A stretch of 64,000 nucleotides of DNA from a virus (taxonomy: Duplodnaviria; Caudoviricetes). This document shows positions 17,458-58,160 of the stretch, one piece after another. The DNA lies in IMG/VR virus record IMGVR_UViG_3300044701_003213, positions 1,508 to 65,507 of that record. One strand, written 5' to 3'. A model generated the notes under the pieces. It was not told the origin of the DNA. It saw only the letters and a list, made by a program, of their open reading frames with translations, and did not search any database. How positions within the stretch are numbered: the first letter of the stretch is position 1; every line of letters starts with the position of its first letter. Both the position numbers and the translations under genes were made by a program.

Positions 17458-17490
17458 TAATCTAGTTTATACCTATTAGAAATATTTAGA

Positions 17491-41789: not shown

Positions 41790-41959
41790 AAGCATCCAAA
41801 TCAGATCTAATGCATCACAGATTGCAAGCTTGGCTTAGAGAAAACAGATGTAGTGATCTGGAGTATCTTGGCTTGCAAAATGGAGAACATTATTATAGAA
41901 TAGGATCACATAGAGTACCAGTTTCAAATATTGAGGGGTTTGATTTAGCCGATGAGTAA
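41786..41959 (+). CDS. Hypothetical protein (57 aa)
   Basis: ATGA overlap; manual translation MHHRLQAWLREN..DLEYLG. Confidence 0.65.
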   Translation: MKASKSDLMHHRLQAWLRENRCSDLEYLGLQNGEHYYRIGSHRVPVSNIEGFDLADE

Positions 41960-42671
41960 ACATCTTTTTAATAGTAATGCTGAAAAATTTTCAGCACCAA
42001 TACAAGTGGAAACAACATGTCATTTTATGCCCATGTTCAGTGTGCCTCTTCTTCATATTAGGATTAACAATTGGGAAGAAAAAAAACAAGATTTGCTGCA
42101 AATTTATTCATATTCCAAGAAAAATGCAATTCAAATAGGCGGTCCTGGTGATGTAAATACGGATTATCATTATAATTCTAAAAATTGCAATTCATACAGT
42201 CCTGCAATTTATGATATTCTTGAAGAAGAAATTCTCCTAGCAAAAGATGTTCTTTTCAATAAAGATGATTTTGAGCAGAAAAAAGATCCAGGATCTGAAT
42301 ATATGTTAGCTCCAGATGATCTTGATGATATCGATCTTGTAATGGAGAATTCATGGTTTGAAACAAGCACAAAGTTAACTCATCACGAAGTTCATACTCA
42401 TGGTCCTGTTGGATATAGTGTCGTTGTTTATATTCAATATGACGAGAGAGTTCATACACCAACTCAATTTGTGAATCCATATTTGTCCAATTTTATTGGT
42501 AATCCTCAAATTTATTCTCCTGCTCATCTGGTACAAGAAGGATCTATGATCTTATTTCCATCATCAGTTCTACATTACACATCTCCAAACTCTAGTGATG
42601 TTGAAAGAATTGTCCTCTCATTTAATTTTGTAACAAAAACAAAGTCAACTAGGGAGTATGTATTTGTATGA
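41952..42671 (+). CDS. 2OG-Fe(II) oxygenase (TIGR02466-like)
   Basis: HTHG, EGSMILFPSSVLHY, RIVLSFN. Confidence 0.85.
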   Translation: MSKHLFNSNAEKFSAPIQVETTCHFMPMFSVPLLHIRINNWEEKKQDLLQIYSYSKKNAIQIGGPGDVNTDYHYNSKNCNSYSPAIYDILEEEILLAKDVLFNKDDFEQKKDPGSEYMLAPDDLDDIDLVMENSWFETSTKLTHHEVHTHGPVGYSVVVYIQYDERVHTPTQFVNPYLSNFIGNPQIYSPAHLVQEGSMILFPSSVLHYTSPNSSDVERIVLSFNFVTKTKSTREYVFV

Positions 42672-43294
42672 TTCACTTTTTTCATTCTCCTTTTGTATTC
42701 TGGACAAAAGTTCCAAATCACAATCAACTAAAAGAATATCTTTTACCAAAAATTGAGAAAGATTATAGATTGAATGGTAAATCTTACCGAGATGAATCTT
42801 GTTGGGAATGCAACTCAACTTCATCTTTTCACTCCCCAGTTGATGTTGATAAGAGTATCTTAGCATATGAACCTCTTATTGATGCTATCTGGAATTCTTA
42901 CTCTGAATTTATTGATGAATTGATTGATTCGCAAATGTTATGTACTGAGGCGGAAATTGGAAATTATTCTGAATCTAGTCTCAGTAATCTTTGGTATAAT
43001 TATTACAATAAAGGAGAATTTCAAGAAACTCACGATCATAGCAATAAAAATGATTTCTCTGGCATCTATCTCCTTTCAATTCCAGAAGAATATAATACTA
43101 CTGCTTGGTACAATTATAATGCAGCAATTACTCCATTTGAAAATGGTTTATATTTTGGACAAAAAGATGCCCAAGAGCATGGAATTGGTGAGGGACACAT
43201 GCTCATTTTCCCATCAAAATTACTCCATCATGTACCACCCGCTTCTGGGACTAGGATAACTATTTCATATAATTTTAGATCTCCCAATGCCTAA
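42668..43294 (+). CDS. 2OG-Fe(II) oxygenase (TIGR02466-like)
   Basis: QETHDH, FSGIY, EGHMLIFPSKLLHHV, RITISYN. Confidence 0.85.
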   Translation: MIHFFHSPFVFWTKVPNHNQLKEYLLPKIEKDYRLNGKSYRDESCWECNSTSSFHSPVDVDKSILAYEPLIDAIWNSYSEFIDELIDSQMLCTEAEIGNYSESSLSNLWYNYYNKGEFQETHDHSNKNDFSGIYLLSIPEEYNTTAWYNYNAAITPFENGLYFGQKDAQEHGIGEGHMLIFPSKLLHHVPPASGTRITISYNFRSPNA

Positions 43295-43874
43295 AACATA
43301 TGCAAAAGTAATAAAGAAATTTATTTCTGAAAATGAAATAGATTCATTAAATTTATGGTCTATTAATAATTTTCAAAAAAATAGACATCAATATCATGAT
43401 CCTCATATGGATGACTATTATGAAGAAACTAGGTTTACTACAAGATTAGGAAACTCTGAGGATCACTCTAAAAAGGAATATCAAATTCAATATCCAAAAG
43501 TAGCTTTTGATATCCAAGATAGAATTATTGATTTATTTCGGATGGACGGAGTAAAAACTCCTCCATCTTATTTTAATGGTATTGTGAATGGAATTGGATT
43601 CGAAAATGGTTCAATATGTAAACATGTAGATCCAACATATTATGAAGGAACAGAGACCATGCACTGCAATATAATTACACAAAAAGCAGAGTCTGGTGGA
43701 ATTACGATTATTGAAGATGTAGAATATGATATTGAGGAGGGAGACTTATTATGCTATATTGTCTCTAAACAATATCATGAGGTAACAAAGACAACTGGAA
43801 AAAGAAATAGGATTTTGTGGGTGTTTGGATTCTGTATAGATCAAGAAAAAATAAATCACATTTTTGGTGATTGA
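43287..43874 (+). CDS. 2OG-Fe(II) oxygenase-like protein
   Basis: HVD, ESGG, YHEV, RILWVFGF. Confidence 0.75.
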   Translation: MPKTYAKVIKKFISENEIDSLNLWSINNFQKNRHQYHDPHMDDYYEETRFTTRLGNSEDHSKKEYQIQYPKVAFDIQDRIIDLFRMDGVKTPPSYFNGIVNGIGFENGSICKHVDPTYYEGTETMHCNIITQKAESGGITIIEDVEYDIEEGDLLCYIVSKQYHEVTKTTGKRNRILWVFGFCIDQEKINHIFGD

Positions 43875-44715: not shown

Positions 44716-45170
44716 CTCATTCTCATAATGTATCAATTGAAAGAACATGTGGAGATTGCACATCCTGTTGTGAAGGGTGGTTATATGGTGAAGCATATGG
44801 ACACCAATTTAATCCTGGTCAACCATGTTTTTATCTATGCAAAAGTGGTTGTTCAATTTATGAAAAAAGACCAGAAGATCCATGTAGATTATTTAAATGT
44901 GTGTGGCTTGAAGAAGCAGATGTGTTTCCAGAATGGATGAAACCTAGTGAATCTAATATTATTTGTATAGAGAGAGAATGGGTTAATGAAAAAAAGGAAA
45001 CTACAGCATATCTAGCATTTACTGCTACTGGAAAAGAAATTGATACAAAAGCATATCATTGGATTATGAAATTTCATTATGAAAATAAAATCCCAATTAC
45101 AGTTCAACTTCATGATGATATTGGAATCTATGGTCCAGATGAATTTATTGACTACATACGTAATACGTGA
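44712..45170 (+). CDS. YkgJ-like cysteine-cluster (CxxCxxCC) protein
   Basis: CGDCTSCC...C...GCSIYEKRP..C..FKC. Confidence 0.75.
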   Translation: MTHSHNVSIERTCGDCTSCCEGWLYGEAYGHQFNPGQPCFYLCKSGCSIYEKRPEDPCRLFKCVWLEEADVFPEWMKPSESNIICIEREWVNEKKETTAYLAFTATGKEIDTKAYHWIMKFHYENKIPITVQLHDDIGIYGPDEFIDYIRNT

Positions 45171-45195
45171 TATAGTATAATTTTATATCAATTTT

Positions 45196-45333
45196 ATGAC
45201 TAAAAGAACTTATACGCAAAAAGATGGAACAATTTGGGAATGGGACGAGACTCCAGAACTTCTTCAGATCCTTAAAGAACTACACACAAACAACAACACA
45301 CCCAGCACTGGATCCAACAACCCCGTGGTATGA
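45196..45333 (+). CDS. Small hypothetical protein (45 aa)
   Basis: Manual translation MTKRTYTQKDGTIWEWDETPE; promoter-like TTGACT/TATAAT upstream. Confidence 0.55.
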   Translation: MTKRTYTQKDGTIWEWDETPELLQILKELHTNNNTPSTGSNNPVV

Positions 45334-45445
45334 TTGTTTATGCTATTGCGAAATCTGCGAAAGTTTGGGACCAATTCCTGGGCAACCATCTATTCGCAGA
45401 TTTATGGCTTATAGAAATTATTTAAAATCTGTTGGCGTACTGTGA
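45224..45445 (+). CDS. Hypothetical Cys-containing protein (start uncertain)
   Basis: LDPTTPWY..CYCEICESL; overlaps the preceding ORF. Confidence 0.5.
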   Translation: MEQFGNGTRLQNFFRSLKNYTQTTTHPALDPTTPWYDCLCYCEICESLGPIPGQPSIRRFMAYRNYLKSVGVL

Positions 45446-45654
45446 TGGTTAATAAACTCATAGAATGGTTTTTTTCTCCAACAGAAAAAATGATAGTTGA
45501 GGAAATTGATGTCTATTCAAAATTAATTGAATTAGAAGAAAAATACAATAAATTACTAGATGATGTGAAAATATTGCAGGAAGAAAATATAGAAACAACG
45601 AACATTCTTTACGAAATAGAAAATACACTGGATATGTATCAGAAAAATGATTAA
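45442..45654 (+). CDS. Hypothetical coiled-coil protein
   Basis: LQEENIETTNILYE. Confidence 0.65.
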   Translation: MMVNKLIEWFFSPTEKMIVEEIDVYSKLIELEEKYNKLLDDVKILQEENIETTNILYEIENTLDMYQKND

Positions 45655-46324
45655 TATATTCGAAGTAAATGATCTATCAAACATGATAGAAGAAAGATTT
45701 GGAGATAGTAGAATATTCTATATGGATAATTTTTACAAGTATCCAGATCTAATTCGTGACCATATAATGAATACCAATTGTCCAGTATGGAAACAACAGG
45801 AAGGTAATGGAAATACTCATAATATGAGATATTTTGAGGATAGAAGGCATGAATTATTCTATGATGAATTGAAAGATGTCTTTTGGGATATAGTTGATAT
45901 AATTGGAGATGGAAAAACAGTACCTCTAGATGATACTGAGTTCGTCACTAATATGACTAAATTCTATGATGTTCCATATAATGATTTTGAAAATAATTAT
46001 TGGTGGCCTCACAGAGATGCGGGGTGGAACGGTATAGTATATTTTAATGATTATTCTGATGGTGAATGTGGGACCAACATTTATCAGAGAATGTATAAAG
46101 ATCCAGACTATGATAATATCCCAGAACATTTGAATGCTTGGGTTCCAAAAGAGCATTGGAAAGTTATAGGAAAATTTAAATCAAAATATAATAGGTTCGT
46201 TTGTTTTGAAGGTGATAGATTCCATCATGGAATGAATATAACCGATAAAAGATATTTTGGGACAAAAGAGAGTAATAATTACAGGATTAATCAGGTATTC
46301 TTCTTCAAGGATAAAAACAAATAA
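45647..46324 (+). CDS. 2OG-Fe(II) oxygenase-like protein (DUF6445-like)
   Basis: MDNFYKYPD, PHRD, GTNIY, YNRFV..FHHG, RINQVFF. Confidence 0.75.
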   Translation: MINIFEVNDLSNMIEERFGDSRIFYMDNFYKYPDLIRDHIMNTNCPVWKQQEGNGNTHNMRYFEDRRHELFYDELKDVFWDIVDIIGDGKTVPLDDTEFVTNMTKFYDVPYNDFENNYWWPHRDAGWNGIVYFNDYSDGECGTNIYQRMYKDPDYDNIPEHLNAWVPKEHWKVIGKFKSKYNRFVCFEGDRFHHGMNITDKRYFGTKESNNYRINQVFFFKDKNK

Positions 46325-46328
46325 TATT

Positions 46329-46970
46329 ATGGCCGTTCACAAACACAGAGTAAATCCTTACAGATCCAATATAGAAATATCGGATGTAGAAGCTTTTGAT
46401 ATTTTTCCTACAACAGTGTGGGCAGGAAAAGTTAATGTTGATAATGATGTTATATTAAATGAATGCTATTCTCTTCGAGATAAATATCCTGATGGAGTAA
46501 GAAAATCTAATTTTGGGGGATGGCAAAGTGATGTATATAATCTTGATGAAATTGTAACTGAAGTCGAACTCCCTGCAGTATCTGATCTAGGAACTAAAAT
46601 ATTATTTTTTGCTAATAAACTGTGTGAAGAAGAATTGAATTCACAAAGAATGTTCCAAGAATCTGGAACAGGATTTTGGATTAATATAAATGAACAATTT
46701 TGTTATAATGTACTTCATTCTCACCCAAAGTGTGATTTAATAGCTCTTTATTATGCAAAGATTAATTTTACGCAAGGTAACTTAAATTTGATGAGAAATG
46801 ATGGGTCAGCTCACACTCTTCTTTATGAAAATTTAGATAATGGTAGTTTTTTTAAATTGAATGCTGAACCTGGAGTTGTATATCTATTTCCTGCTCATAT
46901 TCTTCATTATGTTGAACCAAATCTTGTAGATGATACTAGAGTTTCTATCTCTTTTAATATTAGTTTCTAA
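46329..46970 (+). CDS. 2OG-Fe(II) oxygenase (TIGR02466 family)
   Basis: SNFGGWQS, HSHP, LFPAHILHYV, RVSISFN. Confidence 0.88.
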   Translation: MAVHKHRVNPYRSNIEISDVEAFDIFPTTVWAGKVNVDNDVILNECYSLRDKYPDGVRKSNFGGWQSDVYNLDEIVTEVELPAVSDLGTKILFFANKLCEEELNSQRMFQESGTGFWININEQFCYNVLHSHPKCDLIALYYAKINFTQGNLNLMRNDGSAHTLLYENLDNGSFFKLNAEPGVVYLFPAHILHYVEPNLVDDTRVSISFNISF

Positions 46971-47020
46971 TTTAAATACTAAATAGTAAAAGCATAATTG
47001 GAGGATGAAATAAAAATATT

Positions 47021-47533
47021 ATGTCAGTCTTAACAGTAGATGGTATTAATTTTAGCGATGGTACATCTCTAAATTCAAGATACGGAATTATACCTCAAAA
47101 TTCTGTTGTAGTTTTCTATCAAGCGTCTGCTCCAACTGGATGGACTCAATTAACAACTCAAAATAATAAAGCTCTAAGGGTTGTTAGTGGAACTGGTGGA
47201 GGTTCTGGTGGAAGTATTGCCTTTACATCTGCTTTTCCCGGAACATTAAAACCAATCACAGGTATTGTAACGACAACAGGTACTGTTGGAGATACTACAC
47301 TAATAACATCACAACTTCCATCTCACTCTCACGGGGCTGGATCTGAAGTCAACGTTAGACCAGGAGCTCCTAGTGTTACTGGACGTTTAGCAAACACTGA
47401 TGCTCCAAATACTGGACTTACTGGTGGCGGATTACCTCATAATCACCCATTCGTTTCTGGAGACTCTCCTTGGTCAACTACAATTGACTTAAGAGTGCAG
47501 TATATTGATGTAATAATTTGTAGATTTAATTGA
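47021..47533 (+). CDS. Short tail-fibre tip / collar-type protein with HxH motifs
   Basis: FYQASAPTGW..NKALRVV collar motif; TTL..SQLPSHSH, GGGLPHNH; CTAAATA late promoter at 46979. Confidence 0.7.
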   Translation: MSVLTVDGINFSDGTSLNSRYGIIPQNSVVVFYQASAPTGWTQLTTQNNKALRVVSGTGGGSGGSIAFTSAFPGTLKPITGIVTTTGTVGDTTLITSQLPSHSHGAGSEVNVRPGAPSVTGRLANTDAPNTGLTGGGLPHNHPFVSGDSPWSTTIDLRVQYIDVIICRFN

Positions 47534-47558
47534 TAAAAGATTAGGAGGAGGGTAATAA

Positions 47559-49043
47559 ATGGCTATTTTAACAGCAACCAGTATAGTATTTGGGGATAGT
47601 TCCGCAATTAATTCCTTCTATGGAATTATACCTAAAAATACCACTGTGGTTTTTTATCAAGCAAATGCTCCGACTGGTTGGGCTAAAACTACATCTCAAG
47701 ATAATAAAGCTCTTAGGGTTGTTAGTTCTACTGGTGGAGCTACTGGTGGAAATGTACCTTTTACTTCCGCCTTTCCTAGTGTATCAAATGTAAGTATTGC
47801 TGCTACAACAGTTGGTGTTGGTACTGTTGGAGATACTACATTAACTATTAGTCAAATAGCACCTCACGCTCACGGTTCAGGAGGAGCGAATACTGGTATT
47901 GCTGCGGGACCTGCTACTCCTTCTAGGTATCTGGAAAGAACTCCTATACAATATGGTATTAGGGTAGCTTACGCACAGGTTAGAAACTATCAACAACCAC
48001 AAGCTTATAGACAACCTCAAACATATTCACAACCCCAATCATTTAGACAACCACAAGCGTATAGGCAACCAAAAACATATCAACAACCATTAACTTATCA
48101 GCAGCCATCTACTTATCGGCAACCATCAGTATATACAGTTCCTATTGTTAACAGACAACCGACTCAAACTCAACAACCATACAGAACTCCAGTAATTAGA
48201 AACTATCGTCAACCATTTACTTCTCCTGTTAACGCTGGTGTTCCTGTTCAGCAACCGAGATCATATCCATTTACAAGGAATTATCAGTCACCATTTACTT
48301 CTCCTATCAACACTCAATCTACAGTCGTAATTAACCGACAGGCTCCTTTTGGAAACAGAGGTCGAAATGTATTTGGGGAAAGGGATAGAAATAATAATGC
48401 TAGAAGAGGTCGAATTATCCGACCAAATAGGAATAGGGTAGTTCGTAACTATGCTCAACCAAGAAGTTATAGTTTTCCACAACCAAGATCTTATCAACAA
48501 CCAAGAAGAAGCCCTATTAGTAGATCATTGCAGAACAATACTAGAGCAAACGTTCAGCAACCAAGATCTTATCAACAACCAAGAAGAAATCCAATTGCTG
48601 TTGGTTACAGACAACCAAGAACAACACCAGTTGTTGCTAGAAATCCACTAACATATCAGCAACCAAGGAATTTAAGAAGTCCTGCACCTAAAAGGACTCC
48701 TATTGTTAATAGATCACCGATTGTTAACCGAGTAATTGCGAACAAAAGAGTTATTGCAAATACTTATATTCAGGCATCCAAAAGAATCGTTGCTAACAAA
48801 AATGTTCCTCTTGTAAATTACAATCCCGTAAGATATCCACAATTAGTGAATGCTAGATATGCTACAAGAATACTTGTTCCTGGTGGGCAGATAAGAACTG
48901 CAAACACTAATGGTCCAGATACTGGATTAACAGGCGGTGATGGATCTCATAATCACCCATATACTGGCGGACTCATAAGTATTTCTTCCTCAGTAGATTT
49001 AAGAGTTCAATACATAGATGTTATTCTTTGCTATTTGCAATAA
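47559..49043 (+). CDS. Paralogous fibre protein with ~324-aa Arg/Gln/Pro-rich repeat insertion
   Basis: N- and C-termini align with the 170-aa neighbour; insertion lies between PHAH and SHNH; AGGAGG RBS. Confidence 0.8.
   Translation: MAILTATSIVFGDSSAINSFYGIIPKNTTVVFYQANAPTGWAKTTSQDNKALRVVSSTGGATGGNVPFTSAFPSVSNVSIAATTVGVGTVGDTTLTISQIAPHAHGSGGANTGIAAGPATPSRYLERTPIQYGIRVAYAQVRNYQQPQAYRQPQTYSQPQSFRQPQAYRQPKTYQQPLTYQQPSTYRQPSVYTVPIVNRQPTQTQQPYRTPVIRNYRQPFTSPVNAGVPVQQPRSYPFTRNYQSPFTSPINTQSTVVINRQAPFGNRGRNVFGERDRNNNARRGRIIRPNRNRVVRNYAQPRSYSFPQPRSYQQPRRSPISRSLQNNTRANVQQPRSYQQPRRNPIAVGYRQPRTTPVVARNPLTYQQPRNLRSPAPKRTPIVNRSPIVNRVIANKRVIANTYIQASKRIVANKNVPLVNYNPVRYPQLVNARYATRILVPGGQIRTANTNGPDTGLTGGDGSHNHPYTGGLISISSSVDLRVQYIDVILCYLQ
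47982..48850 (+). repeat. Coding hexapeptide repeats (xxYxQP and IVNRxP/ANKRVI)
   Basis: 18-nt periodic caacc repeats; exact 31-nt duplication at 48480-48510 and 48558-48588. Confidence 0.85.
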
Positions 49044-49080
49044 ATACAGTATAATTTACATATTATTAATTTGACTTGTA

Positions 49081-49458
49081 ATGAAAAATAATTATTGTCC
49101 ATTGATTAAAAAAGAATGCATTCAAAATAAATGTGCATGGTATACTCATATTAGAGGTATAAATCCAAATACTGGACAAGAAGTTGATGAATGGAATTGC
49201 ACCATTTCTTGGATTCCAATGCTTTTGATTGAAAATTCACAGCAGCAACGTTCTACTGGAGCAGCTGTTGAATCCTTTAGAAATGAAATGGTAAAAGCAA
49301 ATGAAAGCAATCTAAATATTCTAGAAGCAGCAGCAAACATGTTTTATGGTGCATCTGAGGCAGTTGAAGAAATTAGGTTTTTTGAGGAGTCTCAGCAAAA
49401 TCTAATTGAAAATAATGAAGAAGATCAAAACCTATTAAATCCTGAAGGAGGAAACTAG
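49081..49458 (+). CDS. Cys-rich fibre-associated protein
   Basis: CPL..C....CAW...C...W, then ENSQQQRSTGAAVESFRNEM; ATAAATA upstream. Confidence 0.75.
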   Translation: MKNNYCPLIKKECIQNKCAWYTHIRGINPNTGQEVDEWNCTISWIPMLLIENSQQQRSTGAAVESFRNEMVKANESNLNILEAAANMFYGASEAVEEIRFFEESQQNLIENNEEDQNLLNPEGGN

Positions 49459-49463
49459 TAAAA

Positions 49464-50882
49464 ATGAGAGTTACAATTATTCCTAGTGAAAAGAAAGTAG
49501 TAGTAGATGGTAGACCAATCATATTTGATTCTTGGAATTTTAATGATGGACACATTCATGCTATTCAATGGAATCACGATAAAGGTCATATTGAATTCGT
49601 AACTAGAGATCCTAATCAGGAAATCGAGTCTCTTGATTATATTCAAAAATATTTGGATATCTTTTTCGATGAAATTCCTAAGATCGAACAGATCCGTATG
49701 AAAAGGGAAGAGGAAGAGAGGCAGCGTAAAGAACAAGAGTCTCTCGAACTCCAAAGTGTAGATGAGGAAAAAGAGCAATTAAAGAAAATGGTAGAGCATA
49801 CCATTGAAGAAAATAAAAAAATAAGAGAAGCAAAAAATGCATTAGAAGTGCAAAGAACAAAAGAAATTGTTGAAAGTGAAAATGAAGCGAGACGACTGGA
49901 AATCGAAAAGCAAAGATTAGAAGCAGAAAATAAGAGACTTCAATCAGAACAGGAGATTTCTGCTAGGGAAAAATTCTGGAATGAACATTTCCAAAAACAA
50001 AATGAAGATCTTTTAAAAGCTCATGATGAGATGGGGAAAGTAGCAGAAAAAGTAGATAATACAGTAAAATCTTATTTTGATAAAATTGATGAAAAGAAGA
50101 GTGTAATTGAAGAATCTATCAATGCACAAATCAATCAATTAAAAGAATCTGAGAATATTTTAAACGAAAAAAATAAATTATCTCAAGATGAAATTTCAGC
50201 GCAATATCAAAGAATTAATGAGTTAAATACAAAGTTAGCTGAAGAAAAGGAAATTACATTTACCGATATTAACAAGAGGTATGAAGAGCTTGAGGAAAGA
50301 ACTTCTCAAATTCAAAGACTAAGAGATTTAGCTGAATCAAGTGCTCAATCAATGATTCAACAAAATGAACTTCAATTAGAGCAAATCAAATTGGAAAGAA
50401 AAAAGATTGATGAGATGAAACAAGCTCACGATCAATCAATTGAGATTATGACTCAAACTCTGGAACTTCAGAGATCTGAAATTGAAATTCATAGAAAAGA
50501 ACTTGAAAATAGAGAGAAGGAACTTCAGTCTAAGATTGTTGAAAAAGATGTTGAATATGAAATGAGATCATATGAACAACTTAAGAATCTAGCAATTGAA
50601 AATCTTGTTGAGCAAGAGACACGAAATATTGTTAGAGATGAAGCTCAGAATAGAGCTGCAAAAGCAATTACTAAAATTGCACAATCTGAAGATCCACTAG
50701 ATATCTTTAAGGCAGCTATGATGGATCCTACTATTACTCTAGAGACTTTACCAATAGACAAAATCATTGGATGGTTCTCTAAGATTCAGAAGGCACAAGA
50801 GCTATGTAAGAAGTATAATATTACCTATGAGCAACTTCTTGAGTCTAAAGAAATGAGAGATATGCTAAACTTTACTTTCTAA
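49464..50882 (+). CDS. Putative fibre-assembly protein with long Glu/Lys-rich coiled coil
   Basis: N-terminal RVTIIP..VVVDG..IHAIQW...GHIEF domain, ~330-aa helical segment, small C-terminal domain. Confidence 0.65.
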   Translation: MRVTIIPSEKKVVVDGRPIIFDSWNFNDGHIHAIQWNHDKGHIEFVTRDPNQEIESLDYIQKYLDIFFDEIPKIEQIRMKREEEERQRKEQESLELQSVDEEKEQLKKMVEHTIEENKKIREAKNALEVQRTKEIVESENEARRLEIEKQRLEAENKRLQSEQEISAREKFWNEHFQKQNEDLLKAHDEMGKVAEKVDNTVKSYFDKIDEKKSVIEESINAQINQLKESENILNEKNKLSQDEISAQYQRINELNTKLAEEKEITFTDINKRYEELEERTSQIQRLRDLAESSAQSMIQQNELQLEQIKLERKKIDEMKQAHDQSIEIMTQTLELQRSEIEIHRKELENREKELQSKIVEKDVEYEMRSYEQLKNLAIENLVEQETRNIVRDEAQNRAAKAITKIAQSEDPLDIFKAAMMDPTITLETLPIDKIIGWFSKIQKAQELCKKYNITYEQLLESKEMRDMLNFTF

Positions 50883-50911
50883 TAAATTTTAATAGTTTAT
50901 AATATAAGATA

Positions 50912-52438
50912 ATGAATGATTTCTTACTAGAAAATAACCATATAGTAATTCCTAATTTCATATGCAGTGATAGAGCCAAAGAATTAGCAAGAGAGTTTAA
51001 GTTAGTATCCGAAGAATACAATTTTCCATCTGATAAACAAGCTCTAAACTCTCACAGTTGTTATAATTATCTTCCAGCTCTAGAATTACTATGTGAAAAA
51101 ACATCACATGTTTCTGATATTATTGGAACACCAGTATTGCCTACTTACACCTATGGTAGAATATATAAAAATGATTCTGTATTAGAAAAGCATACTGATA
51201 GACCAGCTTGTGAAATATCAGCAACAGTTCATTTAGATGGAGATCGTCCGTGGTCAATATGGATAGAAACTCCAGAAGGAAATCCAAGATGTGTTAATCT
51301 AAATCCAGGAGACGCAATGATCTACCTTGGATGTGTTGCTCCTCATTGGAGAGATGCATATAGAGGAGAATGGTATGCTCAGTTTTTCACTCATTATGTG
51401 AGAGCATATGGACCATGTTCTGATGTTTACTTTGATAAGTATAAAGTAAGTAATAATGAAGAGTCAGCGATGCTCAAAAAATTATATGAAGAGCAAAGCA
51501 CAAAAAATCTAGCATTAGAAAATAAATTGTTTGCTAGTTCAGATGATGTCCAACAATTCGAGCAACATTCGGACAATTTTGTAAAAAAGGTTTTAAAAAA
51601 TAAAAACATTAAGGAAAAGGAGGTGAACGTGATGAGTCCAGCTATTACTTTTGAGAGTGAGTTAGAAGAACTAGTTAAAAAAATCGCTGGTAGTGTAAAT
51701 AAAGAACCAGATAGTCCTATTGATAATGAGACAAATGAAAAAGCTTTTATCAATTACATTACTGATGAAAGTAAAGAAAATACTTCAGTAACAAAATCAA
51801 TAAAGGATAAATTTATCTACAGAAAATTTGCTGAAGATAATAATGATAATGCATTGATTACTTCAACTACATCAACTACGAAACTATCTGACTATATCGT
51901 AGTAGTCGATGATGTTATTCCATTGGAATTGTGTGATGAAATATTGGATGAATATATTAATACTGATTTGTGGAACAATGCACTGACTGGTGGAGGTCTT
52001 GATAAAGAATCTAGACGTTGTAATGTAATTGGATTATCTGAACCAGAGGTTATCAACCAAAATCCAGATTATAGATCTAAGATAGATTCTGCACTCTATG
52101 AATGTGTGGCTAATGCATTATCAAAATATCAAGCAAAATTCCCATATTTTGATATAGAAATAAATGAAGACAGTGGATATGAATTACTAAGATATAAAAC
52201 TGGAGATTTTTATGTTCAGCATACTGATTCATTTAAACAACAACCAAGAGCAATATCTTGTACAATGTGCCTAAATGATGATTATGGCGGTGGTGAATTT
52301 GGTTTCTTTGATAGAGAGGTTGTTCTTAGACCAAACAAAGGATCTGTAATTATGTTCCCATCAAACTTTATGTATCCCCATGAAGTAATGCCTGTAACTA
52401 GCGGAACTAGATATTCTATTATTACATGGTTAGTTTGA
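50912..52438 (+). CDS. Two-domain 2OG-Fe(II) oxygenase (C-terminal domain prolyl-4-hydroxylase-like)
   Basis: Domain 1: HTDRPACEIS..HWR; domain 2: HTD..LNDDYGGGEF..FPSNFMYPHEV..GTRYSIITW. Confidence 0.88.
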   Translation: MNDFLLENNHIVIPNFICSDRAKELAREFKLVSEEYNFPSDKQALNSHSCYNYLPALELLCEKTSHVSDIIGTPVLPTYTYGRIYKNDSVLEKHTDRPACEISATVHLDGDRPWSIWIETPEGNPRCVNLNPGDAMIYLGCVAPHWRDAYRGEWYAQFFTHYVRAYGPCSDVYFDKYKVSNNEESAMLKKLYEEQSTKNLALENKLFASSDDVQQFEQHSDNFVKKVLKNKNIKEKEVNVMSPAITFESELEELVKKIAGSVNKEPDSPIDNETNEKAFINYITDESKENTSVTKSIKDKFIYRKFAEDNNDNALITSTTSTTKLSDYIVVVDDVIPLELCDEILDEYINTDLWNNALTGGGLDKESRRCNVIGLSEPEVINQNPDYRSKIDSALYECVANALSKYQAKFPYFDIEINEDSGYELLRYKTGDFYVQHTDSFKQQPRAISCTMCLNDDYGGGEFGFFDREVVLRPNKGSVIMFPSNFMYPHEVMPVTSGTRYSIITWLV

Positions 52439-52439
52439 T

Positions 52440-53168
52440 ATGGATTTGGAGCATTCTCATCAGTTTTTTATTGGTTCGTATGATGATTGTTTAACAAAAG
52501 AAGAGTGTGATATTCTAATAGATTTTTTTGAAGGTAGAGGTGATAGGAAACACTTAGGTCTAAATCAATTTGATGAATATAAGCATCTTGGAAGACATGA
52601 TCTTCAAATAAATCTATTAAACTTTAAAGATGATGAGAAAATCCAACCAGTTGTTACTAAACTTCTAGAATCTGTAGATAAGTGTGTAGAAGTCTATAAA
52701 AATGTATTTTTTACATATAATCAAATTTTATATTCTGATATTCTTGATAGACTAACTAACCCAGCAGTAAAAATTCAAAAAACTCCAATACGCGGAGGAT
52801 ATCATGTATGGCATTGTGAAACAACTGATGTTAGTTCTTTAGAAAGATCTCTAGCATGGATTTTATATTTAAATGATATTCCAGAGGGTGAAGGAGAGAC
52901 TGAATTTTTATGGCAAGGTGTAAGAATTCAACCAAAAGTGGGAAGATGTGTTCTATGGCCTGCTCAATTTACTCATGTTCATAGAGGAAATCCTGTATAT
53001 ACAAAAGAGAAGTACATAGCAACTGGATGGATCTGTTATAAAGATGTTATAGAAAATCATGCACATTCTCCATTTATCTATGACCCACAAAGAGACTTTA
53101 CCTGGAAAAAAACAACTGATGAGAGACTAAAGAGAGAGGGTTATAGGAGAAGAACTGAGGATGATTGA
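52440..53168 (+). CDS. 2OG-Fe(II) oxygenase (prolyl-hydroxylase-like)
   Basis: GGYHVWHCE, YLND..GETEF, WPAQFTHVHRGN, KYIATGW. Confidence 0.9.
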   Translation: MDLEHSHQFFIGSYDDCLTKEECDILIDFFEGRGDRKHLGLNQFDEYKHLGRHDLQINLLNFKDDEKIQPVVTKLLESVDKCVEVYKNVFFTYNQILYSDILDRLTNPAVKIQKTPIRGGYHVWHCETTDVSSLERSLAWILYLNDIPEGEGETEFLWQGVRIQPKVGRCVLWPAQFTHVHRGNPVYTKEKYIATGWICYKDVIENHAHSPFIYDPQRDFTWKKTTDERLKREGYRRRTEDD

Positions 53169-53219
53169 CTAATCCTACAATTTACGATACAATTTGACTA
53201 TGATACATACCTTAAAATA

Positions 53220-53450
53220 ATGGCTCTATCAAAATCAGTCGAAGAATCTCTGAAAGAAGCAGAGGCTGCCCTAAGAAATGCATTAGCATATGCTGCCCGC
53301 CAAGAAAGACCCGTTGTTTGTAATGGGATCGCTGAAATGATTTGTAGGATTGATCAAATTCAATCCTTTGATGGTATTCTTGATAAAATTGAAGATATGA
53401 AAAATTCTGACGGAAAAAATTGGGGATCTTTCTTTTCGACGGATGGTTGA
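53220..53450 (+). CDS. Hypothetical protein
   Basis: MALSKSVEESL..LRNALAYAARQERP. Confidence 0.7.
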   Translation: MALSKSVEESLKEAEAALRNALAYAARQERPVVCNGIAEMICRIDQIQSFDGILDKIEDMKNSDGKNWGSFFSTDG

Positions 53451-53452
53451 TA

Positions 53453-53707
53453 ATGGCTTTACCAAAGGATTTTGATGGTAAGTTTACTCTTAAAAAATCA
53501 AATGGTTTTGGGTTCTTACCAGAAGATGATTCTTCAGATATCTTTACCGTTTGGTTTTATCGAAGAGAGAGTGAAAATAAAACCATTAAAGAGTTTTTAG
53601 ATAGTCTAGATCCAGAAAATATTGGATTTGATAAACCTTCAAATCAATTATTCTATAAATCTATTTCAGGTCAGATTTATAGAATGGATTTTACCAAGGT
53701 CAAATAA
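53453..53707 (+). CDS. Hypothetical protein
   Basis: ORF in operon. Confidence 0.6.
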   Translation: MALPKDFDGKFTLKKSNGFGFLPEDDSSDIFTVWFYRRESENKTIKEFLDSLDPENIGFDKPSNQLFYKSISGQIYRMDFTKVK

Positions 53708-53801
53708 TATTACAAATCGTAACACAATCCCAAAGAGAACATTAAGTTTCTAGATAGTAGTGTATTGGTATGCTAACATTGAGATATATCGCAAAGAGAC
53801 C

Positions 53802-53966
53802 ATGACCTACTTCCAAAATAAAGATAAAAATCTAACAGATGATGAGTGGAATGAGATGAATGCTCTGAGAACGGTTATGAATCAAAATCCAGCAGCTTTG
53901 CACCCAGATAAAATGGAACAATTCACTGAATATCTCATTCGTTCCATGCGAGGAACGGATCAATAA
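53802..53966 (+). CDS. Hypothetical protein
   Basis: LTDDEWNEMNALR..P..LHPDKMEQFT. Confidence 0.6.
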   Translation: MTYFQNKDKNLTDDEWNEMNALRTVMNQNPAALHPDKMEQFTEYLIRSMRGTDQ

Positions 53967-54019
53967 GTGGCACACTGGTGGTTGCAGGACACCCCTCTTG
54001 CCCTATAATACTCTCATAC
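53953..54019 (+). promoter_or_regulatory. Repeated early-promoter element, copy 2
   Basis: GAACG-N10-TGGCA; TATAAT at 54004. Confidence 0.65.
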
Positions 54020-54030
54020 GCAACAAACTG

Positions 54031-54405
54031 ATGATCACTCCCACTCGCCAAGAGTTCAGCGACTTCTGTGCTCAGCGTGATGCTCAAAATACTATTCATC
54101 TTAATATTGTTAAGTATGGTCTGATGTTGTGTGATGCTTTGACTGCTGATGCTAGTCACCTTAAAGCAGCAAACTATGGGTTTGAACTCGACTCTTCTGG
54201 TCGAAAGTACCATAAAGTTTTCATGTATATTAATGGTCGTCGTGATAGCATTCACGCTTTTATTGATAAGAAGACTGGTGATGTATTGAAACCTGCTAGC
54301 GTAAAAGCACCCGCTAAGGGTGTTCGTTACAATGTTCTCTCTATTCCTTCCCGTGAATCAATGTTTGAGCGTTGTGATTGGGCAGGTGGTTATCTTTATA
54401 AGTAA
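54031..54405 (+). CDS. Conserved phage early protein
   Basis: GRKYHKV..SIHAFIDKKTGDVLKPASVKAPAKGVRYN..DWAGGYLY. Confidence 0.75.
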   Translation: MITPTRQEFSDFCAQRDAQNTIHLNIVKYGLMLCDALTADASHLKAANYGFELDSSGRKYHKVFMYINGRRDSIHAFIDKKTGDVLKPASVKAPAKGVRYNVLSIPSRESMFERCDWAGGYLYK

Positions 54406-54425
54406 TAGTAAATGATAAAACAAGT

Positions 54426-54656
54426 ATGAAATTTCTTTTACTGTTGCCGATTGTATTCACATCAATACCATCACATGCGATTACCTGGAAAGAGTTTTGG
54501 GAACCTTTTGATAGTGAAATTCATGTATACCAAAGTCCACCTATGTGTAGAAGACGTGTATATAGAGAGCAATATGTACCAGGAACAGAATGGAATCCTG
54601 GATATGTTAGACGTTGGTATGATGTAGTCAGACAACCTTGTAGTTCACGTTATTGA
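54426..54656 (+). CDS. Small exported hypothetical protein
   Basis: Signal-peptide-like N-terminus. Confidence 0.6.
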   Translation: MKFLLLLPIVFTSIPSHAITWKEFWEPFDSEIHVYQSPPMCRRRVYREQYVPGTEWNPGYVRRWYDVVRQPCSSRY

Positions 54657-54658
54657 TC

Positions 54659-54946
54659 ATGCCTACTTACAAAGCAGAAATTAAAACAGTTCCAACGGGA
54701 TCTAGTTATACTGTAACTGTAGAATCTGGATCTATGAGTACCGCTAGACAAGAGATTGAGCATCTTTATGAACCAATTTACATTCGAAATTTACGTCAAG
54801 TTGGATCTGAATCTGGTAGTGATGGATCTATCGAAGGTACATGGTTTCTAATTGCTATTTTAGTTACAATTGTTATTGCAATTCAATTCTGGCCTATCAC
54901 ACTTGCACTTCTGGTAATTTGGGGTCTTTATAAGATTTTTAGTTGA
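54659..54946 (+). CDS. Membrane protein
   Basis: C-terminal hydrophobic segment. Confidence 0.65.
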   Translation: MPTYKAEIKTVPTGSSYTVTVESGSMSTARQEIEHLYEPIYIRNLRQVGSESGSDGSIEGTWFLIAILVTIVIAIQFWPITLALLVIWGLYKIFS

Positions 54947-54950
54947 GCTG

Positions 54951-55019
54951 TGACGGTTTAGAAACCTGCACACAGGGTTCCTTCGGGGACCCTTTTTTGC
55001 TATAATACTCTCATACGCG
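54951..55019 (+). promoter_or_regulatory. Repeated early-promoter element, copy 3 (with TTCG terminator hairpin)
   Basis: TGACG-N10-CTGCA; agggttcc-ttcg-gggaccct-T-run; TATAAT at 55001. Confidence 0.65.
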
Positions 55020-56264
55020 ATGAATCCAGTGATCCAACTCCGTCCCCACCAGACCCGCGCTACTGCTGCTATGGAAAAGTATAGCAAAGGTCAGGTTATC
55101 GTTCCTACTGGCGGCGGCAAGACTCTGAAGATGATCTTCGACGCTATCCGCCAATTCAAGTCTGAAACTGCTCAGACCATTGTTATCGTTGCTCCTCGCA
55201 TCCTTCTTGCCGAGCAACTCTCCTCTGAGTTTCTTGAGCACATTGTTGATGTTGAGGTGATGCACGTTCACAGTGGTGAAACTCATCACTTCAGCACCAC
55301 TAAAGTGTCTGAAATTCAAGCTCACGATGCTGCTTGTAAGGTTGCAAATCGCCACCAACTTATTTTCACCACCTACAACTCTTTGAATCGCCTGCAGGCA
55401 GCACAAATTGATGTTGATACCATTTATTTCGATGAAGCACACAATTCAGTCCAACGTCACTTTTTCCCTGCTACGGAGTATTTCTCTTCTGCTTCTAACC
55501 GCTGCTATTTCTTCACTGCTACTCCTAAGCATTCTGCTACTATTTCCAAACCTGGGATGAACGATACTGCCGTTTATGGTCAGGTAATTTGTCAAGTTCC
55601 TGCTCCCGAACTTGTGCAGGGTGGTTTCATCATTCCCCCTAAAGTTGTGGTCAAGCAGATGCAACTTGCTAGCAACTTCACTAGTGTTGCTGCTCGTGAC
55701 TCTGTGAATCTTCTGGAGACTATCGACGACAATCAGTGCGACAAAGTTCTGGTCTGCGCTAAGTCTACCAAGAATATTGTTAACCTCATCTCTGAGTCTG
55801 ATTTCATCACTCAACTGCAGTTCCGTGGTTACTCTTACATGTATATTACAGCAAAGACTGGTGCTGTGATTGATGGTCAGAAGGTCAATCGTGAAGTGTT
55901 CTTCGACACTCTCAGCGACTGGGGTAAGGATGACTCTAAAAAGTTTGTTGTTCTTCACCACAGCATCCTTTCTGAAGGCATCAATGTGTCTGGTCTCAAT
56001 GCTGTGATCTTTATGCGTTCGATGGACTACATCGGCATCTCTCAAACTATCGGTCGTGTGATTCGTCTGCACAAAGATGATGCTGCTGGACTTCGCTCTG
56101 GTACTATCACTCCTGGTGCTCTCGATCAGTACACCAAATCGTTTGGTCTTGTATGTGTCCCTGTGTTCGACAAGGTAGGTATCAGCACTGCCCAGAAGAT
56201 TCAGAACGTCGTTGATATTGTCTTCGAGCAGGGCGATGCAGCAGTTTCCGTTGTGAAGCGGTGA
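55020..56264 (+). CDS. SF2 DEAH-box helicase (ResIII-like)
   Basis: QLRPHQ, PTGGGKT, DEAH, TAT, SEGINV, QTIGRVIR. Confidence 0.9.
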   Translation: MNPVIQLRPHQTRATAAMEKYSKGQVIVPTGGGKTLKMIFDAIRQFKSETAQTIVIVAPRILLAEQLSSEFLEHIVDVEVMHVHSGETHHFSTTKVSEIQAHDAACKVANRHQLIFTTYNSLNRLQAAQIDVDTIYFDEAHNSVQRHFFPATEYFSSASNRCYFFTATPKHSATISKPGMNDTAVYGQVICQVPAPELVQGGFIIPPKVVVKQMQLASNFTSVAARDSVNLLETIDDNQCDKVLVCAKSTKNIVNLISESDFITQLQFRGYSYMYITAKTGAVIDGQKVNREVFFDTLSDWGKDDSKKFVVLHHSILSEGINVSGLNAVIFMRSMDYIGISQTIGRVIRLHKDDAAGLRSGTITPGALDQYTKSFGLVCVPVFDKVGISTAQKIQNVVDIVFEQGDAAVSVVKR

Positions 56265-56390
56265 CCCCCTGGGGTCTCACCCTAGACCCACTGAGAACCC
56301 AGTCTTGGCCTAGGGTGAAAACCCGATTTTTTTGTAATTTCACCCGACAGACCCTAGTGGTCCTCCACCCCAAATAAAAATGAGGATTTT

Positions 56391-56552
56391 ATGAAAGAAG
56401 GATTTATCGTGGGGCAAGGCACCTACGCTGCTATTCCCTACGGGAACCAACTTATGGTAATATATAATGGTCAACAGTTAAAAGTCTGTAGAACTGAAAA
56501 GTCTGCACGGGACTTTATTGCTAAGCACAAGAAGAATCCAAACATTATATGA
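56391..56552 (+). CDS. Small hypothetical protein (53 aa)
   Basis: GAGG RBS; manual translation YAAIPYGNQLMVIYNGQQLKVCRT. Confidence 0.65.
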   Translation: MKEGFIVGQGTYAAIPYGNQLMVIYNGQQLKVCRTEKSARDFIAKHKKNPNII

Positions 56553-57514
56553 GCGTACAAATTTTACAGAAACCCGTAGAAGAAGTTGGTAGTATTGATC
56601 AAACTTTTGATCTGATCTACATGGATCCTCCCTTTGGATTGCAGAGGGATTTTACCATGCAAGAGGAAGATGGTGAAGAAAAGGGATTCTCAGATACCTG
56701 GAGTTCTTTCGACGATTATATCGATTGGTATGCGGGTGTAATCAACAACTGTTGGGCAAAACTCAACAAAGATGGGTGGCTTTATGCTCACAACAATTTC
56801 ATTGGAAATGCTCTGGTTCTGTCCAAGGTAGATCCTAAGATTAGAGATGCATTCTACACTAACATCTCATGGAAACGCAGCGGTCCTAAGAACAACATCA
56901 AAAACGGTTGGGGTAATATTGTAGATTCGATTGTTGTTTTCAGGAAAGGTAGTCCATACTTTGAGGTTGAGTATACCTCTCTTGACCCAGTGTATGCTGC
57001 TAACAGCTTTAACAATAAGGATGAGGTTGGTTACTATGCCTTAGCAAAGGTTACAGGCGAAAAGAGTCGCCCCTGTGCTCGGTTTGAGTACAAAGGATAC
57101 AATCCTCAGTATGGATTCCGTATAACAAAGGAAAAACTTGAAAATTTGGACGAGCAGGGTCTATTGCACTTCGGTAGCAATAACATTTACAAAAAAATCT
57201 ATTCTCATGAGTCTAAGGGCGTCCCTGTACAAAATCTATGGGATGATGTATACTTTATCAGTAGATCTGAGAAGAATAAGCGAAAGTATCCCACACAAAA
57301 GCCACTGAAACTATTAGAACGTATTATAAAGTCATCTTGTCCAGAGGGTGGTTGGGTGCTTGACCCCTTCTGTGGATCTGGGACTACAGCAATTTCTTCA
57401 TTAAATCTAAATAGAAACTGCATCAGCTTGGATGTAAATCCAGATGCTATAAAAATAGCGGAAGATTCAATCAATGAGTTAAACAATCCGCTAACAAAAG
57501 TTCTTTATAGTTAA
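56549..57514 (+). CDS. N6-adenine/N4-cytosine DNA methyltransferase (beta class)
   Basis: DLIYMDPPF; YPTQKP..LLERII; VLDPFCGSGTT. Confidence 0.93.
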   Translation: MSVQILQKPVEEVGSIDQTFDLIYMDPPFGLQRDFTMQEEDGEEKGFSDTWSSFDDYIDWYAGVINNCWAKLNKDGWLYAHNNFIGNALVLSKVDPKIRDAFYTNISWKRSGPKNNIKNGWGNIVDSIVVFRKGSPYFEVEYTSLDPVYAANSFNNKDEVGYYALAKVTGEKSRPCARFEYKGYNPQYGFRITKEKLENLDEQGLLHFGSNNIYKKIYSHESKGVPVQNLWDDVYFISRSEKNKRKYPTQKPLKLLERIIKSSCPEGGWVLDPFCGSGTTAISSLNLNRNCISLDVNPDAIKIAEDSINELNNPLTKVLYS

Positions 57515-57515
57515 T

Positions 57516-58160
57516 ATGAAAAACAAAAAATACCTCCTATATTTCCTTGGGTGTATTCTATTTTCATTAGGAGCAACATTCTTTATTGCATCTAATCTTG
57601 GAACAAATCCATTAGATGTATTCACAACTGGTATTCGTAAACAATTTGGATTATTAATTGGAACAACTCAATCTTTATTTGCGATTGTATGTCTAATTAT
57701 TTGGACGATCATTTACAAGTTTAAACGTATTCCACCAATTTCTACATTTCTAACATTCTTTCTTTGTGGGTATCTCATTGATTTCTTCCTATTTCTCACT
57801 GGAGAACAAACACCACTTAATTCATGGGTAGAACTTTGTATTGCATTGTTCTTATGTACTGAAGCGAGTGCATTGATTATCATGAGTGGATTTGGTATCC
57901 GAGCAATGGATCTTGTAGCGATTGCATTAACTGATAAAACAGGATTACCTTTCTGGGTATACAAAGGTATCGCAGAAGTTTTATTGTTCACTGTTGGTTG
58001 GGCATTAGGTGGAATGTTTGGTATTGGTACGATTGCGTTCTTATTCTTTGTTGGATGGATGATACAACCATTCATTTATGTAAATCAAAGACTAGGTGTA
58101 CCAAACTATGGTCCAGTGGGACTATTAAACAAAGTTAAAGAGGAATCAATTAAAGTTTGA
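57516..58160 (+). CDS. YczE/YitT-like integral membrane protein
   Basis: About six TM helices; LGTNPLDVFTTG and G..GIGT motifs. Confidence 0.7.
   Translation: MKNKKYLLYFLGCILFSLGATFFIASNLGTNPLDVFTTGIRKQFGLLIGTTQSLFAIVCLIIWTIIYKFKRIPPISTFLTFFLCGYLIDFFLFLTGEQTPLNSWVELCIALFLCTEASALIIMSGFGIRAMDLVAIALTDKTGLPFWVYKGIAEVLLFTVGWALGGMFGIGTIAFLFFVGWMIQPFIYVNQRLGVPNYGPVGLLNKVKEESIKV

Follow-up and report, generated by a model that had tools for sequence, protein, structure and literature searches.

A stretch of 64,000 nucleotides from a virus of the class Caudoviricetes (positions 1,508 to 65,507 of the IMG/VR record IMGVR_UViG_3300044701_003213; hereafter the window) was found to carry, at 47021-53168, a block of six genes that includes two fibre-tip genes, here designated fibA and fibB, and a gene for a protein with a long acidic helical region, named after its HAIQW domain. 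The fibB product is predicted to hold a polycationic insert, and in related loci the net charge of the HAIQW-domain protein tracks that of the insert. The viral contig from which the window comes is 65.5 kb long (CheckV completeness ~31%); the window has a G+C content of ~0.33 and carries almost all of its genes on one strand. The coordinates of the six open reading frames (ORFs) proposed in an initial annotation of this DNA were confirmed, all being on the + strand and separated by gaps of 1–37 nt (Table 1). The genes and the layout that it described were recovered, while its late promoter, its length for a hairpin formed by the long fibre and its count of oxygenase genes were not borne out.

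Table 1 Features of the fibre-tip module and of the region upstream of it, with positions in the window. 2OG, 2-oxoglutarate; aa, amino acids; AF2, AlphaFold2; HxH, His-x-His.
Feature	Position	Strand	Basis
2OG-Fe(II) oxygenase, PF13759 type	41952..42671	+	Pfam E 9.9e-11, 42.4 bits, cut-off 27
2OG-Fe(II) oxygenase, PF13759 type	42668..43294	+	Pfam E 3e-11
Putative 2OG oxygenase	43287..43874	+	46% identical to S-SCSM1 ORF241 (named 2OG-Fe(II) oxygenase by the depositors)
oxA, putative 2OG oxygenase	45647..46324	+	41% identical to S-SCSM1 ORF242; invariant HxD...H
oxB, 2OG-Fe(II) oxygenase, PF13759 type	46326..46970	+	Pfam E 1.5e-14, 54.6 bits
CTAAATA word, possible late-promoter core	46979..46985	+	In 50-nt gap, 36 nt ahead of the first fibre ATG
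fibA, short HxH fibre-tip protein, 170 aa	47021..47533	+	Profile match to solved tail fibres; 60% identity to S-SCSM1 ORF244
fibB, long HxH fibre-tip paralogue, 494 aa	47559..49043	+	Ends align with fibA
Polycationic insert, fibB residues 106-463, between HxH motifs	47874..48947	+	Composition, hexad repeats, AF2
4-Cys protein, 125 aa, family without assigned function	49081..49458	+	Conserved family
HAIQW-domain protein, 472 aa: beta domain 1-55, acidic coiled-coil spacer ~61-410, LPIDKxxxWF 429-438	49464..50882	+	AF2, hhalign, heptad signal
ox5, two-domain oxygenase, 508 aa, acidic linker	50912..52438	+	N-domain HxD...H; C-domain PF13640, 67.4 bits
ox6, 2OG-Fe(II) oxygenase, 242 aa	52440..53168	+	PF13640, 46 bits

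Megablast of positions 45000-54000 against phage records gave no match. Among cultured phages, Synechococcus phage S-SCSM1 (Kyanoviridae) is the nearest at the protein level, and its gene order is the same: four oxygenase genes are followed by genes for a 178-aa ‘tail fiber protein (virion protein)’, a 421-aa ‘short tail fiber protein’, two hypothetical proteins of 128 and 445 aa, and oxygenases of 453 and 217 aa. Upstream of the fibre module are genes for a homologue of baseplate hub/lysozyme proteins, for tail proteins and for a tail fibre of 1999 aa. As judged from these homologies, the block is the fibre-tip module of an S-SCSM1-like, T4-type cyanophage (cyanomyovirus).

The fibA and fibB products are paralogues, the N-terminal ~105 aa and the C-terminal ~30 aa of the fibB product aligning with the fibA product. 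A profile of 15 homologues of the short fibre matched the PDB chains 9qgo_A (E 7.2e-9) and 9nxk_A (E 0.0021), which the database lists as the fibre of a Photorhabdus contractile injection system and the fibre of Pseudomonas phage Pa223. The window fibres are like these solved tips in sequence and have, as they do, two HxH motifs around a loop; the T4 gp12 and gp37 needle are also HxH fibre tips. The histidine pairs are invariant in the 15 short-fibre sequences (H102, H104, H140 and H142) and in 22 aligned long fibres (H103, H105, H464 and H466). The S-SCSM1 counterpart of the short form, ORF244, is the protein named ‘tail fiber protein (virion protein)’ in GenBank. In most relatives the two motifs are 36–45 residues apart, about one quarter of these being Gly; in the window fibB the gap is 358 residues. 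The alignments indicate that in fibB the Gly-rich loop of ~40 residues has been replaced by an extremely Arg-rich projection of 280–380 residues. The window insert contains 49 Arg, 5 Lys, 45 Pro, 42 Gln, 33 Asn and 25 Tyr, with a net charge of +49. Conservation of fibB extends to 26 non-redundant insert-bearing loci and six further pairs, and across the insert loci the loop differs from that of the solved tips in its 278–384 residues, its net charge of +40 to +83 and its almost complete lack of Lys, the most Arg-rich example having 89 Arg in 292 residues. Neither a solved nor a described counterpart of the insert was found, and in the open-access literature searched the insert, the charge relation reported below and the 4-Cys protein family all went without a description.

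The fibB insert contains a hexad repeat of the type aromatic-R/Q-Q-P-x-x, visible as an 18-nt (6-aa) tandem repeat at 47993-48128. Pro recurs with a period of 6 (power 1.2; the shuffles reach at most 0.96), and an Arg/Gly cluster occupies the centre (residues 264-295). An artefact of the reading frame was ruled out, the frame being open and the flanks conserved in the 22 aligned homologues at 29–48% identity. The AF2 monomer model of fibB had a predicted local distance difference test score (pLDDT) of 49, with strands only at residues 122-188 and 374-440 and with residues 189-373 below pLDDT 45. This model would fit a hairpin-like base and gives no support to a fully ordered 50-nm needle. In the initial annotation a helix of about 50 nm had been set beside a hairpin of 50–55 nm; the arithmetic for the helix holds, provided that the helix is unbroken, but a hairpin of that length finds no support in a model of pLDDT 49.

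Some contigs differ from the window within the insert. In those of runs X9 and X10 (two studies), 88 nt of 48249-48336 are replaced by 10 other letters, with a net loss of 26 codons (fibB residues 231-260) just ahead of the Arg/Gly cluster; this variant is tentative, the short side of the joint being 30 letters at 90% likeness. In runs X5 and X7 substitutions crowd at 48306-48343, accompanied by a +1 and a -1 indel that offset each other. Among natural phages the tip of the insert seems to be hypervariable, a tentative reading based on short-sided contig joints.

The product of the gene following fibB had been called Cys-rich. The gene is present, but only four Cys are encoded, all of them conserved in the relatives inspected, in the motif CPL...C...CAW...C, after which comes a conserved AVESFRNEMV stretch. 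The protein has 567 relatives in viral contigs and 6143 cluster representatives in a protein collection (E ≤ 1e-5), and among 120 of these representatives listed neither a Pfam family nor a functional name occurs. The protein itself had no match in Pfam, PHROG or NCBIfam, and a search of the ESM Atlas returned unnamed viral clusters only. It is far better conserved than its neighbours, being 48–62% identical to proteins of P-SSM2, S-B05, an Autographiviridae roseophage and a Ralstonia phage. As a conjecture, it could serve the HxH sites by handling metal or by aiding trimerisation.

The surroundings of 93 distinct 4-Cys proteins were compared in the collected loci. Where the upstream flank was long enough (87 loci), an HxH fibre gene lies before the Cys gene in 80; where the downstream flank was long enough (91 loci), a HAIQW-domain gene comes after it in 81. 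The tie between the helical protein and the fibre that the initial annotation had drawn is upheld by this order. The module is real, its parts linked by conserved gene order, and the Cys and HAIQW genes form a cassette that is widespread, following fibre genes of this kind in many myo- and podoviruses. Departures from the pattern were also seen. In S-SCSM2R (L220 3293-6054) the Cys gene is preceded by an oxygenase gene instead of a fibre gene and followed by genes for a 140-aa HAIQW protein, an ox5 homologue and three glycosyltransferases, so that the Cys-HAIQW-ox5 trio travels together here with no fibre gene adjacent. In Ralstonia phage PY059YO380 (L085 5594-6931) the Cys gene stands after a gene for a 128-aa protein, tail-fibre-assembly-like by eye, and before genes for a small protein (PHROG 462, lipoprotein; PHROG 937, hemolysin) and an L-alanyl-D-glutamate peptidase; no HAIQW partner is present here, so the Cys protein is not invariably accompanied by one.

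For the N-domain of the HAIQW protein, AF2 modelled six strands (residues 2-54) and a helix starting at residue 61, with pLDDT 89. Residues 73-410 contain no Pro and one Gly. The local heptad a/d contrast of the helix was 0.344, against 0.258 ± 0.025 in 200 shuffles (maximum 0.331); the global 3.5-residue Fourier power was not raised, and the signal is found in local windows only. A locus search with the single sequence of the helical protein returned no relatives, and an alignment was required as the query. Across the loci the size of the protein runs from 72–104 aa, for the domain alone, up to 573 aa. Two of the HAIQW proteins, L059 7339-9060 (573 aa) and L078 7336-8991 (551 aa), are encoded beside insert-less fibres and have an extra C-terminal half of ~250 aa that is aromatic-rich and non-helical by eye and for which no family was found. 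These 551–573-aa partners were dropped as long coiled coils, the extra half reading, by eye, like a fused domain.

The profile of the N-domain aligned with PSSM2_030 of phage P-SSM2 (hhalign 97%, E 6e-11) and with gp41 of Roseobacter phage CRP-361 (hhalign 99%, E 6.5e-18). Both proteins (173 and 145 aa) matched PHROG tail-fibre-assembly families, and in both the N-domain is followed by PF16778 (Phage_tail_APC; 45.2 and 72.1 bits, cut-off 26.6); CRP-361 gp41 is annotated ‘tail assembly chaperone protein’. Because the same N-domain precedes PF16778 in these two phages, the HAIQW coiled-coil protein is taken as a derived member of a chaperone-type family and not an invention for fibB. In the window protein the chaperone C-domain is replaced by an acidic coiled coil with a fixed length of ~350–370 residues. 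Among the short HAIQW proteins, L139 and L143 had no PF16778 and L046 scored below the cut-off, so the chaperone link rests on the two cultured phages. A search of open-access text found no paper on PF16778 or Phage_tail_APC.

The lengths of the insert and of the helical partner were compared in 61 non-redundant myovirus-type loci in which both genes are complete; truncated genes were left out, as were fibres of the podovirus type, which have their tip domain at the C-terminus. These loci comprise an insert-less class (35 loci, HxH gap 36–45, partner 93–573 aa, median 288), a medium class (16 loci, gap 278–300, partner 431–448 aa) and a long class (10 loci, gap 361–384, partner 472–493 aa). 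Partners of 431–493 aa occur beside insert-bearing fibres only. Gap and partner length are correlated over all loci (r = 0.79), and independent contrasts gave 0.48, a value carried by about three contrasts; within the classes rho was 0.01 (medium) and 0.35 (long). When the spacer was measured between two anchors, the QxYxD at the end of the N-domain and the FPVEK-type C-terminal motif, it spanned 351–355 residues for medium-class inserts of 282–299 residues and exactly 368 in 8/8 long-class proteins with both anchors (inserts 361–369). In the long class a Pro-free core of 338 residues is common to 10/10 proteins, which are 25–37% identical to the window protein. Passing from the medium to the long class, ~80 extra insert residues are accompanied by ~15 extra helix residues. 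In one locus of the metagenome scan a gap of 323 goes with a partner of 447 aa, and the X9/X10 variant of the insert, 26 codons shorter, tentatively sits beside an ungapped partner gene. The length of the helix is clearly constrained but is not scaled to the insert.

Charge was examined in the 26 insert-bearing loci (16 medium and 10 long). The initial annotation had suggested that the acidic helix complements the Arg-rich insert, and the charge of the partner does track that of the insert (r = -0.91; partialling out G+C leaves -0.85, and partialling out G+C together with the lengths leaves -0.80). The pair carries +49 and -27 in the window, and +65 and -62 in S-SCSM1. The charge of the whole fibre varies from +36 to +87 (standard deviation (sd) 13.6) and that of the partner from -26 to -72 (sd 14.2), and their sum is +5.8 with an sd of 8.3, the slope being -0.86. 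Since the length of the spacer is near-fixed, these changes of charge are made by substitution and not by length. The relation was retained in independent contrasts (r = -0.65, 25 contrasts, p = 3.5e-4), 18 of the 22 non-zero contrasts being compensating, and when partners were shuffled within four subclades the observed covariance was reached in 42 of 20000 trials. Within single subclades r was -0.72 (n = 12), -0.64 (n = 4) and -0.38 (n = 4). Given the background charge, the partial correlation was -0.87. Six further insert pairs from metagenomes had charge sums of +3 to +19, one of them being near-identical to the window and another equal to L089 in lengths and partner charge.

From the gene content, homologies, synteny and length and charge statistics of these loci we infer binding and a chaperone action, and the best-supported mechanism, put forward tentatively, is that of a charge-matched escort or chaperone for the polycationic insert of the fibre tip rather than a ruler scaled to it. 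The HAIQW protein would dock on the fibre through its conserved end domains, and its polyanionic helix would pair ~1:1 with the polycationic insert. Such pairing would keep the insert soluble and off nucleic acids during trimer formation, and the HAIQW protein might be released after assembly. Conjecturally, the surrounding oxygenases, some of which are prolyl-hydroxylase-like, may hydroxylate the insert or its partners.

Several observations weigh against the escort mechanism. The strongest is that the partners of insert-less fibres (n = 35) are no less acidic, their net charge being -10 to -80 and its median -53, in loci where no nearby ORF is basic (maximum +15), from which it follows that the acidity predates the insert; the insert seems to have evolved against an already existing acidic partner. 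One subclade (n = 3) shows the opposite charge trend. Contrasts for control genes had the same sign (4-Cys protein -0.46, ox5 -0.48, other ORFs -0.33, not significant), and as the controls drift the same way, part of the charge signal may be lineage-wide composition. The tree, obtained by quick search from proteins of the module itself, has open forks. The window HAIQW protein had no PF16778 match, whether searched whole or as its first 101 or last 92 residues, and its N-domain is without a match among solved structures: Foldseek of the model against the PDB gave none at E ≤ 0.001, and a wide VIA-align search reached a best Z of 3.8, with no known fold nameable. Finally, in the GenBank record of S-SCSM1 a virion note is given to ORF244 and to none of ORF245-247; the Arg density of the insert would be expected to hide the insert-bearing fibre from tryptic mass spectrometry.

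Known fibre-assembly factors offer partial parallels to such an escort. The Tfa proteins of lambda, Mu and P2 are tail-fibre assembly chaperones. Like the chaperones of the PF16778 and PHROG families, the window HAIQW protein is encoded behind a fibre gene, and it has its N-domain in common with PSSM2_030 and CRP-361 gp41; it differs from them in its ~340–368 acidic coiled-coil residues, its distinct C-terminal motif and its lack of PF16778, and in the 4-Cys gene that intervenes between the fibre gene and its own. T4 gp57A is a small coiled-coil chaperone (~80 aa, no beta domain) for the trimerisation of gp12, gp34 and gp37. It resembles the HAIQW protein in being charged and helical and in serving HxH-type fibres, and we know of no charge matching of gp57A to a client. 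Acidic escorts of polybasic proteins, such as the chaperones of histones and ribosomal proteins, likewise neutralise charge at near 1:1, an analogy that is functional only.

Genes for oxygenases lie on both sides of the fibre, cassette and helical-protein genes. The initial annotation had recognised three oxygenase domains downstream of the HAIQW gene, of which the C-domain of ox5 and the ox6 protein are above the PF13640 cut-off of 27, while the N-domain of ox5 had no Pfam or PDB-profile match. This N-domain has H94, D96 and H145 invariant in 20 homologues; ox5 matched PHROG 3531 and 2954 over its N-domain and PHROG 61 over its C-domain. Upstream, where two more oxygenases had been counted, there are five oxygenase-type genes. 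The PF13759 family is kept at the position of the gene at 41952-42671 in insert-clade loci, and the TIGR02466 match of PF13759-type proteins (oxB) remained below the cut-off. The only Pfam match of the protein encoded at 43287-43874 was weak (WelO5, E 0.008, below the cut-off); oxA, again without a Pfam or PDB-profile match, has H122, D124 and H194 invariant in nine homologues. The iron-binding triad HxD/E...H is readable in the oxygenase translations. In all, five domains pass Pfam, and three more are assigned by their HxD...H columns and the names given by the depositors of S-SCSM1. The solved chains nearest to ox6 are named prolyl 4-hydroxylases (3itq and 5hv0, a weak E of ~1e-4), and the weak PDB matches of the ox5 C-domain include EGLN1 (E ~4e-3) and 4iw3, with prolyl-hydroxylase matches spanning E 1e-4 to 6e-3.

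A late promoter had been thought to drive the block. The word TATAAATA occurs once in the whole window, at 32560 (9.7 expected), and the CTAAATA that precedes the block is not enriched either, being depleted in the window (11 found, 20.7 expected). Several CTAAATA sites are just upstream of gene starts, at 17483 (minus strand), 18968 and 46979. Downstream of the fibre module, at 54001-58000, the G+C content rises up to 0.40–0.42 over helicase and methyltransferase-like genes.

Among loci with at least 2.6 kb of upstream sequence, 2–3 upstream oxygenase ORFs were found in 16/16 with an insert and in 0/22 without one, in keeping with the initial proposal that oxygenases accompany the insert-bearing fibre. 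Downstream, insert and insert-less loci alike have 1–3 oxygenases where the contig reaches, and both ox5 and ox6 also occur beside insert-less fibres. In the insert clade ox5 has 443–508 aa and a net charge of -16 to -46 (n = 17), against 381–404 aa and -9 to -24 elsewhere (n = 23). The linker between its two oxygenase domains is longer and more acidic in the insert-clade phages, and could serve as a docking arm for a basic substrate.

It is nevertheless quite possible that the oxygenases are unconnected with the fibre and are auxiliary genes, acting in 2-oxoglutarate/nitrogen metabolism or on DNA or small molecules, that came to their place by tandem duplication and inherited order. This agrees with the published view: 2OG/NtcA signalling and DNA repair have been proposed for cyanophage oxygenases by Sullivan et al. 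(2010; PMC3037559), and the S-SCSM1 paper reports 24 oxygenase genes and calls their functions uninvestigated (PMC9602691). Three of the flanking genes are PF13759 paralogues, and podovirus loci have the fibre-Cys-HAIQW cassette without any oxygenase. The upstream array is confined to one clade, and as the tree allows the insert clade to have arisen once, the array may represent a single event. Against this stand the seven of the 24 S-SCSM1 oxygenase genes (ORF240-243, 248, 249 and 251) that flank this one fibre module, the order oxygenases-fibres-Cys-HAIQW-ox5 kept across subclades at a fibre identity of only 29–48%, the trio intact in S-SCSM2R without an adjacent fibre gene, and the longer and more acidic ox5 of the insert clade. 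An Ofd1-like prolyl dihydroxylase reported from a virion preparation of S-SCSM2R (PMC12801897) also speaks for a functional link.

The helical protein might alternatively be a fixed-length, fibritin-like whisker or strut, anchored by its beta domain and ~51–55 nm long if continuous, with the covariation of charge being lineage-wide drift. T4 fibritin (wac), of 486 aa and ~53 nm, is similar in size and layout, with a small N-terminal anchor, a ~50-nm coiled coil and a small element at the C-terminus, and it takes part in fibre assembly. A whisker would account for the exact spacer length at low sequence identity and for the heptad signal, and the weaker same-sign trends of the control genes are what drift would produce. 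This reading is considered unlikely. The likeness to fibritin is one of size and layout; the N-domain of the window protein is common to proteins with a chaperone domain; S-SCSM1 ORF247 carries no virion note in GenBank; and drift does not readily explain a partial correlation that is still -0.87 given the background charge.

That the oxygenases hydroxylate the fibre is an attractive conjecture, though an unlikely one. It draws on the upstream array confined to insert loci, the PF13640 domains and the likeness of ox6 to prolyl 4-hydroxylases and of the ox5 C-domain to EGLN1, and is weakened by the presence of ox5 and ox6 beside insert-less fibres. The prolyl 4-hydroxylase of chlorovirus PBCV-1 acts on Pro-rich viral repeats (Eriksson et al. 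1999, as cited in PMC9301287, where the viral use of such enzymes is called cryptic). In comparison with this enzyme and that of Bacillus anthracis (3itq, 5hv0), the window likewise has a virus-encoded PF13640 member near a Pro-rich repeat protein; it differs in that the oxygenase domains around the fibre number up to eight and belong to at least three types. Still less probable is a complete maturation set for a projection of 280–380 residues with up to 89 Arg, in which a fixed-length escort, its negative charge tuned to the projection residue by residue, and the 4-Cys factor would act together with 6–8 oxygenase domains hydroxylating Pro, Arg or Asn of the projection ahead of assembly or in its course.

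Least probable of all is the reading first offered, a splint, ruler or sheath length-matched to a 50–55-nm hairpin whose Pro, Arg and Asn are hydroxylated by the oxygenases: long partners restricted to inserts, the raw correlation and its tree-corrected remnant, the strict spacer lengths, which suggest that length matters, the AF2 strands on both flanks of the insert and the upstream oxygenase array favour it, but a spacer of 351–368 residues serves inserts of 278–384, the correlation all but vanishes within the medium class and is low within the long one, the tree-corrected signal comes from about three contrasts, the 323-residue gap and the tentative shortened variant do not fit, insert-less fibres stand beside equally acidic partners of 93–573 aa, and the model leaves the centre of the insert disordered. 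Of the initial interpretation, the link to the fibre, the complementary charge and the co-occurrence of the oxygenases stand, while the matching of lengths falls.

Cyanophage 2OG oxygenases are among the commonest marine ‘auxiliary’ genes, and the papers cited above treat them as metabolic or DNA-repair genes with untested functions. If they were linked to a structural protein, the counting of oxygenases as metabolic genes would change, and the maturation set considered above, if real, would mean that a virion appendage is matured by a post-translational pathway. Beside phage receptor-binding genes the 4-Cys family forms a large blind spot, its cluster representatives numbering more than 6000 and the 120 listed being without annotation. 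The insert and its partner can be tested at once, as S-SCSM1 is in culture on Synechococcus WH 7803. If the charge-matched escort is correct, a near 1:1 pairing of insert and coiled coil would be a new assembly rule for extreme low-complexity receptor-binding parts.

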